Numbered from the stretch's first letter, positions 6,530-43,298 are shown. The stretch is DNA of 64,000 nucleotides from Eledone cirrhosa (GCA_964016885.1 OZ024746.1:49724001-49788000), one strand, 5' to 3'. Numbers and translations: made by a program. Notes: generated from the sequence alone by a model not told the origin.

Positions 6530-7008
6530 AATTAAGTTAAAAATGTACATCTACATATGCATACTGAAATACTAGTGTGTATATGAATACACACACGTAT
6601 ACATATGTAGGTGTACCAAGTCTTTCACTGGTCGCTTTACAGTGAGCGGCCCAGCTATTCTGTATGTAAACACACAGACAAACCGGTTTTTAGAGTCATA
6701 CTGGTTTTTCGGGGGAACACCTTCCCTCTATTCTCCAGAAAGCCAGACAAGGAATATTGAACTAGTTTCGTTGTTGTTACAACTCATCAGCAATATTTAC
6801 CTATCTACCGGCCTTTCTGGAGAATTGTAAAAGCACATATCGTTATATGCTTTTTCTATGAAAATTAGTAGTGGGCAGACTAATTTGCATAGAGTGTGAG
6901 TACGCACCGGTTCAGCGGAGACGATAAAAACAAATAACGAAACGGAATTAAATTTCGTTTCGTTTGTAACTCACTTTTGTATGACTGACGCTTAAACAAT
7001 TAAGTTAA
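6530..7008 (-). mobile_element. Retrozyme-like non-coding HHR element, copy R1 (468-bp unit)
   Basis: 11-bp terminal direct repeat aattaagttaa (6530-6540, 6998-7008), octamer 6883-6890, HHR 6753-6797, homology to 29907-30398 and 42850-43298, (TA)n on both sides. Confidence 0.75.
6753..6797 (-). ncRNA. Minimal type I hammerhead ribozyme (R1)
   Basis: Minus strand: aatattg-CTGATGA-gttgt(aaca)acaac-GAAA-ctag-TT-caatatt. Confidence 0.85.
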
Positions 7009-7029
7009 TATATATATATATAACGTCGA

Positions 7030-7506
7030 TCAATTAGTTTTGCGAGGTTTTTTATATGAAATCGTGTGTCGAAACAAATATTATTATACTTGGGGAGGGT
7101 CATATTTGTGTAATATTGCCAGAATTAATAACAGAACACACTCACTGTTTGGTTGGTTTTCGCTTTTCGCTTCTGTGTCTTTTATATCGGTAATCTAATT
7201 TATTCGGTCCTCAATGTTGCCATTGACTGACCGACGGTCAAAAATAATACAGATCCAATATAGACACAAACACATATATATAGTTTATTAAAGTTCTTTC
7301 GTTGCACATATATATATGTGTTTGTGTCTATATTGTATCTGTATTATTTTTGATCGTCGGTCAGTCAATGGCAACATTGAGGACCGAATAAATTAGATTA
7401 CCGATATAAAAGACACAGAAGCGAAAAGCGAAAACCAACCAAACAGTGAATGTGTTCTGTTATTAATTCTGGCAATATTACACAAATATGACCCTCCCCA
7501 AGTATA
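7030..7506. mobile_element. Inverted pair of PLE pLTR fragments (arms about 7085-7281 and 7308-7506)
   Basis: ~195-bp arms are reverse complements; the same sequence lies 5' of the PLE ORF at 61363-61570. Confidence 0.75.
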
Positions 7507-40843: not shown

Positions 40844-42849
40844 CAATGTCGGACTGGAACCTAACACCACATCTAGCATCAAACACCAGAGACACACCCT
40901 ATACTACATACCCAACACTAGCTGATCCATTATAACACAAACAACGACATCCCTCTGGAACCCTTCGCAGGGAAAATACCCATTTATACCTCTACGGCAG
41001 GTGTGACAACATCCACCCACTTGGACGGCACTACACCGCTCTAAGGGTAATTTGAGCATGAATTGATCGGTTGGATGGTGTTGGGCAGAGGAAACACCTT
41101 CCTTAGACAGATGTAAAATGATTTAATCGAGTAGCGCTGTTGACCAGTAGGACCGGGCTGCTGAGCGCAGTGAGTGAATGCAATGCAACTGCCGTGCGGG
41201 TTGTACGTATATGGATGATCTGACGGTCAGAGAGGGGTCGCGAGGACTGCGGATTGACCTTTGGCCTGCCTGGGGACGATTATCTTTCGACATCCAATGT
41301 AGCAAGCGATGACCCAGATCTTACCAGAGATCATTGGGTCCTGAAGCAATCCTGCAATCACCGCGCCTGGTCATATGAGCAGACTACAACCACAGAGATC
41401 ATTAATTTAGAATCCTCGCTCATCATCTATAATTTCCATTTGTAGCACCTTAAGATGGGTTAATCCACCTTAATAATAATATGATCACCTTCAGCATAAT
41501 TTAGTTAAACTACTCTATAGTTAGTACACTTTATGCTTTAAAAGTCTCTCTTGGAAGGTGCACCTCACCATAGAATTTAGGGTCTATATTGGGACACATT
41601 TTAATGGCTAGATATAGAAACCCCAGAGTTACCTCCCCGCATGCATTAACTCCCCTTAGCCACACACACACTTCCGGTATTCAATGGCGTTTCTCGAAAC
41701 GTAACAACCTCCTGTATCGAACTAAAGAACACCAGACTACGATCTCTAACTGGATTGTCATGGATTATGTGAAAGGCATATAATCGAAATATACACTCCC
41801 TTGACCATGAAAATGCCGAAGTACATGAATTACTTGACATCCCTGCGCTGTGCATCTCCAATACTTATAACACTTTTAATGCTTGCACTATCTTTAATGC
41901 TTATAATATTTCTCCACACACAGACTATATCAATCATATAAAGACTTTGCCACCAGATCTACCAACCTAACACTCTTATTTACCTACCTAAGTGCCTCTA
42001 CCACACATATCTCTCTGCCACACTATATAAACAAGACGCACATGCGTGCCACACATATAACATTTGCACTATATAACCACTTATCTTCATGTTGTACTTT
42101 AACCTATATCTTTGATTTTTGATTGTACCCATTAATATAAATGTAATCTCGAAGTGTGTACTGCCACTCTAAATTCTGTAATGAATGTTGACCCACAATG
42201 TTTGAATATGTATCAATGTTTGAATATGTGTTGGTATGTCTCTCGGCTGAAAAGGAGGTCATATAACTGTCCATGCATTAATAAATTGCTCCGAAGAATC
42301 CAAACCTCGGTTTGGAGGAAACAGCTGTAAGCACAATAATGTTTTGAACAGTTCTTTGATTCTTATATTTCATATATATATATATATATATATATATATA
42401 TATATATATATATATATATATATATATATATATATATACATATATATATATATATATATACATAGATATCTATACACACATATATATTTACATATACATA
42501 TGCATAAATATACATTTGGATGCATACATACACATATACACAAACACACACTTATATAACGATGTACATATTCTATTCTTAAATACATGAGGTATATAGG
42601 TGACATGTTGTTAGTATAGACAATAAATACACACACACACATGCATATATGCATGTACATATGTATGTCTGGATTGTGCATATTGTCTATATATGTATGT
42701 ATATTTATACATATGAAAATATTTATATATACGCGCGCGCGCACACACATACACACACACACAGACACAAAACACACACAGGGATATATATGTATATATA
42801 CACCTTCAAATTCGCATACATACATGCATACATATGTACACACAGACAT

Positions 42850-43298
42850 AAATTTCGTTTCATTTTTTCCGTTTATCGTTTTCGGTCCACCCGGCCGATT
42901 AACCCACTCGATATGCAAATTGGGCTACTCAGCCGTTAATATGCATAAGGTAAGTATATACGTTCAACAATCTGACAGAAAGGTATACGTTGCTGACGAT
43001 AGCTAATAAGATAGAAACTAGTACAGCGTTCCTTTGTCAGTGTTGAACAAACGAGCAACGATGGTTGCTGGACACTATGGCTTAATACGGGATGTTTGTT
43101 TACAAACACATCGAGCATTATAATAAATGTTCGGTGAATCCATACGTACATATATATATATGTGTGCATGTATGTATATATATATACATACTACTGTCCG
43201 TCTTTATACATATATGTATGTACGTGTACATACTTATATTTAAGTAACAGCCGTACTAAGAGTGGGAAATGAAATTTCGTTTCATTTTTTCCGTTTAT
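42850..43298 (+). mobile_element. Retrozyme-like non-coding HHR element, copy R3 (422-bp unit)
   Basis: 27-bp terminal direct repeats 42850-42876 and 43272-43298, octamer 42913-42920, HHR 42987-43029, ends in (TA)n. Confidence 0.8.
42987..43029 (+). ncRNA. Minimal type I hammerhead ribozyme (R3)
   Basis: acgttg-CTGACGA-tagct(aata)agata-GAAA-ctag-TA-cagcgt. Confidence 0.8.

Follow-up and report, generated by a model that had tools for sequence, protein, structure and literature searches.

Penelope-type insertion junctions in a family of non-coding hammerhead retrozymes

The stretch of DNA analysed here (64,000 nt, hereafter the window) bears on how animal retrozymes enter new loci and on how Penelope-like elements (PLEs) build tandem and inverted insertions. 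It contains three short elements, R1, R2 and R3 (Table 1), that a first-pass annotation had proposed to be a retrozyme family mobilised by PLEs. We compared these elements with their relatives in the genome searched (3.0 Gb, animal-type).

The coordinates, periods and overlaps given in the first-pass annotation (468/11, 453/39 and 422/27 nt) were correct, and the elements are homologous, as it had claimed, with a mean column identity of 71% in their alignment. R2 and R3 are nearer each other than either is to R1 (about 66-71% local BLAST identity). The absence of a credible ORF was also borne out: in seven family monomers read as circles, the longest ATG ORF was 20-72 aa. All three 3' ends abut (TA)n, as had been noted. 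R1 is a 5'-truncated single-ended insertion with its 3' end at a position that we call site A, joined to (TA)n at 6451-6530. R2 and R3 are single-ended insertions that end at a different position, site B, joined to (TA)n at 30396-30421 and 43296-43322, respectively. In contrast, the terminal direct repeats that had been listed as a family feature are only the overlap of 5'-truncated copies that run just past one unit. We rejected fixed terminal direct repeats because single-ended inserts range from about 320 to 900 nt in a pattern-picked sample. By genome BLAST, R1 is 99% identical to many dispersed copies. Genome copies of R2 are 94-95% identical over the window copy, which is missing 13 nt, and in the window both R2 and R3 differ from most copies of the family by single changes in helices I/II.

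Table 1. Positions of the R elements, their ribozymes and 3' end sites, and the PLE features compared with them (window coordinates unless a locus is named).
Feature	Position	Strand	Description
R1	6530..7008	-	R1 family; one 468-nt unit plus 11 nt; period 468
R2	29907..30398	+	one 453-nt unit plus 39 nt; period 453
R3	42850..43298	+	one 422-nt unit plus 27 nt; sister subfamily of R2
R1 HHR core	6760..6790	-	CUGAUGA-helix II-GAAA-CUAG-UU; predicted cut after 6760 (GUU)
R1 extended helix I	6730..6825	-	encloses the HHR; z -4.7 vs shuffles
R2 HHR core	30071..30101	+	predicted cut after 30101 (GUA)
R3 HHR core	42993..43023	+	predicted cut after 43023 (GUA); helix II with one mismatch
R1 small hairpin	6991..7005	-	with site A (internal copy)
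R1 tail hairpin	6928..6964	-	followed by site B; family copies end at about 6924-6928
R2 small hairpin	30330..30345	+	with site A
R2 tail hairpin	30367..30398	+	with site B end
R3 small hairpin	43231..43246	+	with site A
Comparator autonomous PLE	35550..42376	+	outside the R family; 832-aa RT/GIY-YIG-type ORF at 38345-40843
R-PLE chimera L093	1040-3195 of locus		B + near-B
R-PLE chimera L172	1145-1900 of locus		A + A
R-PLE chimera L207 / L280	1-1020 of L207		B + B

Each element has one hammerhead ribozyme (HHR) motif, as reported earlier. The pattern CTGANGA-N6-30-GAAACTAGTH matches the window exactly three times, in R1, R2 and R3; 0.01 matches were expected, and three were reached in 0 of 100 shuffles. 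In the predicted fold, helix I has 6-7 bp and continues, past an internal loop, into a long extension. Helix II has 4-5 bp, and helix III has 2 bp with a palindromic ACUAGU. The z-score of the extended helix I against shuffles is -1.9 in R2 and -3.6 in R3 (R1, Table 1). Across 12 family variants of the HHR, 92.5% of cells pair. Two-sided compensatory changes were found in 7 of the 16 pairs of helices I and II, and the covariation score was reached in 0 of 500 shuffles, a test inflated by the kinship of the 12 variants. The cut predicted in R1 follows a GUU triplet, which is a weak cleavage site. Among the 150 of 310 Rfam matches listed, the only hammerhead match was that of Hammerhead_HH9 to R1, and it was below threshold (38.6 bits, gathering 52, E 3e-6). 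Rfam miRNA matches in the window were dismissed as TA-repeat noise.

The label "minimal" had been applied to these ribozymes, and their predicted helices do not fit it. As defined in PMC4209133, canonical metazoan type I HHRs include those with a short palindromic helix III, and the min-HHR of PLEs has no helix III or loop 3, a short helix I and a long helix II. By this definition the modelled HHRs of R1-R3 are canonical metazoan type I and not min-HHRs. An HHR with a short palindromic helix III is expected to function as a dimer, and the predicted ACUAGU duplex (-6.8 to -8.0 kcal/mol) is the sequence basis for such pairing. Circular folding of the seven natural monomers (424-502 nt, 35-38% GC) gave MFE z-scores of -6.1 to -13.7 (25 shuffles each), to which TA-rich palindromes contribute. 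Helix I was closed across the cut site in all three of the circular folds listed.

The HHR pattern is abundant in the genome. We found 40,289 matches, compared with 5 for a reversed control, and 9,298 matches to the R1-type pattern, compared with 0 for its control. With units of 422-502 nt, R elements make up roughly 0.6% of the genome (estimated as 40,289 x ~450 bp). Copies occur as solos, tandems and arrays of 30 or more units, including a 31-unit array at C1:5738326-5752334 and an array of at least 19 units in locus L225 that has a 9-unit higher-order period, with variant units 4,226 bp apart. Many copies and multimers with variable breakpoints had been predicted for a retrozyme family, and genome BLAST shows both. 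Judged by sequence, R1-R3 are copies of non-coding, HHR-bearing non-LTR retrozyme families. R DNA contigs are very deep in sequencing run X1; low-depth, near-identical R pieces occur in runs with three other organism labels, where contamination is possible. A search for HHR variants with a different helix II start gave 228 matches, and the 40 loci inspected held only R mutants and ORF-less orphans. Loci L227-L234 have isolated HHR cores with the CUAG loop of R but with unrelated or weakly related flanks; L230 and L232-L234 resemble each other. A search for a PLE ORF near these cores gave no match. They are probably relics of an older family.

We found that R insertions have two fixed 3' ends. 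Their 5' ends are scattered, and their 3' ends are at site A or site B, joined to (TA)n. Site A is within a small hairpin, and site B is just past a second hairpin, the tail hairpin; the two sites are 66 nt apart in R1 and 55-56 nt apart in R2 and R3. A head-to-head inverted arm is present in about half of the insertions of a pattern-picked sample (21 of 43, by eye). Where a double-ended insertion abutted TA tracts on both sides, its ends were A+B in 59 of 60 cases (p 5e-17 vs 0.5), after artefacts and internal variants were removed, by stated patterns, from an unfiltered tally of 65 AB and 20 BB; false B ends enter that tally because the tail hairpin is palindromic. Among 18 double-ended loci that had not been used previously, 17 were called A+B by script and the remaining one (L213) was A+B by eye. 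In total, the script called 76 of 78 double-ended insertions A+B. Two B+B insertions (L192 and L008) are genuine. The B arm was shorter in 10, similar in 1 and longer in 6 of the 17 R1 loci compared by eye. That either arm can be the longer favours two independent primings over fold-back. Target-site duplications cannot be read for R because the targets are (TA)n. The scattered 5' ends agree with the variable breakpoints foreseen in the first-pass annotation. Its defining form of insertion, a "monomer plus a little", is not supported; the defining form is two fixed 3' ends with frequent 5' inversions.

Autonomous PLEs in the same genome follow the same rule. In four families, 19 of 22 distinct double-ended insertions were A+B. 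The 832-aa PLE in the window (Table 1) has a perfect inverted arm of 2,194 nt and A and B ends, 161 nt apart, at (TA)n. It is intact and young, with about 90 near-identical copies among the matches listed, and pattern scans found no HHR core in it. R elements share the fixed ends and the A+B rule with autonomous PLEs. The earlier proposal of PLE mobilisation is supported, and we consider it very probable that PLEs mobilise the non-coding R family.

R elements do not appear to be the terminal repeats of a PLE. None of 171 HHR-bearing loci had R as the terminal repeat of a PLE ORF, consistent with the earlier reading that R elements are not solo pLTRs attached to such an ORF. A PLE ORF fragment was nearby in 39 of the R loci searched; every same-strand upstream match was separated from R by a TA tract except in the chimera L207. 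We looked for R-like sequence in PLE families with ORFs of 1217, ~1167, 832, 808, 749 and 471 aa and in several GIY-YIG groups and found none; the autonomous families examined have their own ends and some have their own HHR. Protein searches with five PLE families, a GIY-YIG family search (10,596 candidates, 150 scored) and the variant-HHR pattern found no pLTR homologous to R. Clustering of R beside one PLE family was set aside as nesting in shared (TA)n tracts. The three TA-free head-to-head R-PLE chimeras (Table 1) all involve the 1217-aa/P clade and have ends of the same type. Tails in this clade are 58-60 nt, and the HHR core of the 1217-aa family is 254 and 314 nt from A and B, compared with 259 and 315 nt in R2. 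The chimeras could be secondary insertions with deletion, and they give no more than a hint of a link to the 1217-aa/P clade. We leave PLE clades unnamed because Pfam matched only one of the five PLE ORFs in the window.

Which RNA serves as template? In 51 R1 insertions we counted 91 private variants present in all covering units, 17 in some units and 125 that were single. In R1 insertions, private variants tended to be common to all covering units and to both arms. Sequence difference was 0.5-0.9% within insertions and 1.8% between them; subset variants do occur in the 31-unit array. The HHR cut site showed no excess of 5' breakpoints: those lying at most 3 nt away numbered 0 of 85 in R1 (1.3 expected) and 1 of 134 in R2 and R3 (2.1 expected), counts in which some breakpoints at reference position 1 are alignment artefacts. 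Indels were rare at the cut-site junction. We rejected an HHR-cut linear monomer as template because 5' ends and scars at the cut site were absent from these loci, which were chosen by best BLAST hit or intact HHR, a choice that under-samples main arms stopping at the cut site. This leaves a circular RNA or an uncut multimer as template. With so many haplotypes specific to one insertion, the circular RNA is favoured, and the sequence comparisons lend weight to the earlier notion of read-through of a circular RNA, though not to the "monomer plus a little" form attached to it.

Our preferred reading is that R elements are inserted in trans by the reverse transcriptase (RT) and endonuclease of a PLE, from two fixed start sites on an RNA that is probably a circular monomer; on balance we think that this whole chain is right. 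Tandem loci would be transcribed, and adjacent HHRs, paired through ACUAGU, would cut out monomers. A host ligase could then join these into circles, as described for other retrozymes in PMC7229834. A PLE protein, probably as a dimer, would cut (TA)n on both strands. The two DNA ends would then act as primers for cDNA synthesis on the element RNA, at A for one end and at B for the other; TA microhomology would be 1-3 nt. Each cDNA would extend round the template for a distance that is random and that often exceeds one unit. Joining of the two cDNAs head-to-head would give an inverted insertion; completion of only one would give a single-ended copy such as R1-R3. Some long arrays may expand later at the DNA level. 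We infer the steps from transcription to priming; the DNA structures that they would leave are observed. In vitro, a PLE protein that is predicted to be dimeric cleaves AT-rich DNA on both strands, extends each of them and starts reverse transcription at two internal sites, the tail being the sequence between them (PMC11167929). More tentatively, and with less confidence than an even chance, we suggest a specific asymmetric form of this scheme: a PLE dimer with the circular RNA, rolling-circle cDNAs from A and B, and, as helper, the 1217-aa/P clade, whose tail length matches that of R and which takes part in all three R-PLE chimeras found. If that is true, PLE integration in general would obey the near-strict A+B rule as a law, and the ~40,000 HHR units would preserve in the genome the traces of a viroid-like circular RNA copied by rolling-circle reverse transcription.

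It is possible, if rather unlikely, that the template is instead the uncut, linear, multimeric transcript of a tandem array, also mobilised by PLEs, with the HHR cutting rarely or serving another step. Seamless junctions are equally compatible with such a transcript, and so is a cut site at which no 5' ends lie. Homogeneous arrays would also be expected from a homogeneous source array, and long source arrays exist (31 units at C1, at least 19 in L225). HHR cleavage was unnecessary for insertion by an anole PLE in vitro, and no RNA ends were at the cut site (PMC11167929); cleavage was seen in only one of nine Xenopus dimers in bioRxiv 10.64898/2026.07.22.740005. However, at least 8 young insertions have their own variant set in every unit and in both arms. 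For these, a linear template needs a separately homogenised source array each, whereas one circle suffices. Variants in only some units, which a heterogeneous array should produce, are the rarest class (17 of 233), and the HHR core is strongly conserved and covaries. Instead of two primings, a single cDNA might self-prime by fold-back, with the endonuclease resolving the hairpin to leave one tail. Fold-back has been proposed for PLE inverted repeats in PMC3846280, "EN-mediated resolution" is described in PMC8557442, and variants common to both arms would be accounted for. We consider this improbable for R: the start points of the arms are unrelated, their lengths can be many units apart, the arm with the tail is the longer one at some loci and the shorter one at others, and both ends of the tail are RT start sites in PMC11167929.

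Two further explanations were considered. An autonomous PLE family outside our sample could have left R elements as ordinary pLTR fragments, solo or in tandem. HHRs and the same ends are found in PLE pLTRs, and the 1217-aa family has nearly the spacing of R2. The genome also has many PLE families; of its 10,596 GIY-YIG candidates, 150 were scored. The perfect head-to-tail periodicity of 420-500 nt with no ORF, the count of 0 in 171 loci for R as a terminal repeat, and the 228 variant HHRs that gave only R mutants and ORF-less orphans (40 loci) make this very improbable. Scarcely credible is a satellite or minisatellite spread by DNA-level amplification. The higher-order period in L225 and the subset variants in the 31-unit array speak for it, but the majority of loci, scattered over many contigs, are solos or short inverted inserts whose fixed ends lie at (TA)n. 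This contradicts it for dispersal, and it holds only for secondary growth of long arrays.

Non-LTR retrozymes (PMC7229834) and their derivation from PLEs (bioRxiv 10.64898/2026.07.22.740005) are already published. Like the metazoan non-LTR retrozymes described by Cervera and de la Pena (2020, PMC7229834), R elements are non-coding, low-GC tandem repeats a few hundred bp long that bear a type I HHR whose helix III is short and palindromic, have a highly paired predicted circle and coexist with PLEs. Their copy number, tens of thousands, is like that of the axolotl retrozymes in that paper. They differ in unit length (422-502 nt compared with 170-400 nt). Circles were demonstrated for the retrozymes of that study, whereas those of R are predicted, and two fixed ends and inverted arms, seen in R, are undescribed in its results and discussion. 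Li, Clavereau and Pollet (bioRxiv 10.64898/2026.07.22.740005) likewise conclude that PLEs mobilise retrozymes. Published support for this link is co-occurrence and pLTR homology, in Xenopus in their case; the R families, for which we found no homologous pLTR, add evidence from junction architecture. Arrays are attributed to local amplification in that preprint, whereas R junctions point to arrays made at insertion.

The likeness to endonuclease-bearing (EN+) PLEs is close. Their insertions, as described in PMC8557442, PMC3846280 and PMC11167929, share with R two RT start sites, a tail at one end, inversion, 5' truncation and targeting of AT-rich or microsatellite DNA. R elements have tails of 55-66 nt and no ORF, compared with tails of 30-40 nt in published EN+ PLEs. 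A tail is optional at one inverted pLTR in the account of PMC3846280 and often present at one end in that of PMC8557442; in contrast, exactly one tail was found per double-ended R insertion in 76 of 78 cases. Non-autonomous Chlamys PLEs such as MRC1 (PMC8557442) are, like R, non-coding and multicopy in head-to-tail order, and their insertions are made by PLE machinery, as those of R very probably are. However, at their 3' end these elements are similar to an autonomous family, and R has no homologous parent among the families examined; most Chlamys elements in that paper are without canonical HHRs, and R has one. Our literature search, which left many subscription papers outside its coverage, found no count of an A+B rule and no analysis of tails or inversions in retrozymes. 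The R families offer a natural data set on insertion junctions that is both very large and young (99% identical), and the question lends itself to simple tests with a 450-nt R RNA and the intact candidate helper ORFs that this genome contains.

Several other PLE-related sequences were noted. A double-ended solo pLTR insertion of the 1217-aa family is at 7026-7508, and R1 sits in its terminal (TA)n; PLE-type inserts thus nest in the TA tracts of one another. At least four families are represented by further PLE copies or fragments, at 30420-35370, 60108-61575, 26098-26851 and 16517-17353; the first of these has the same inverted, two-ended form. Elsewhere in the genome, a 1217-aa PLE ORF in L124 (G000:C4:250690700-250700699) has a long asparagine-rich insert that recalls the N-rich inserts of rotifer PLEs described in PMC3846280. 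In loci L149-L154, the 808-aa family has (TA)n(TG)n repeatedly between its 3' end and the next pLTR-like sequence, and this microsatellite may be part of the tandem unit of the family.

The window contains a further HHR-bearing repeat, at 10950-11690. It is inserted in inverted, double-ended form; its two fixed ends differ and lie 98 nt apart, and its HHR cores, with the palindromic loop UAUAUA, are at 11486-11530 (+) and 11060-11016 (-). A first look gave 1,568 candidates in the genome; no tandem copy was found in 15 loci, and the upstream sequence was non-coding in the one locus read. Several LINE-like copies with APE-endonuclease and RT are beside (TATC)n tracts at 20600-25850 and 44500-57000. 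Finally, a 347-aa ORF at 7655-8698 resembles a Tc1/mariner transposase, judged by the appearance of its translation only.
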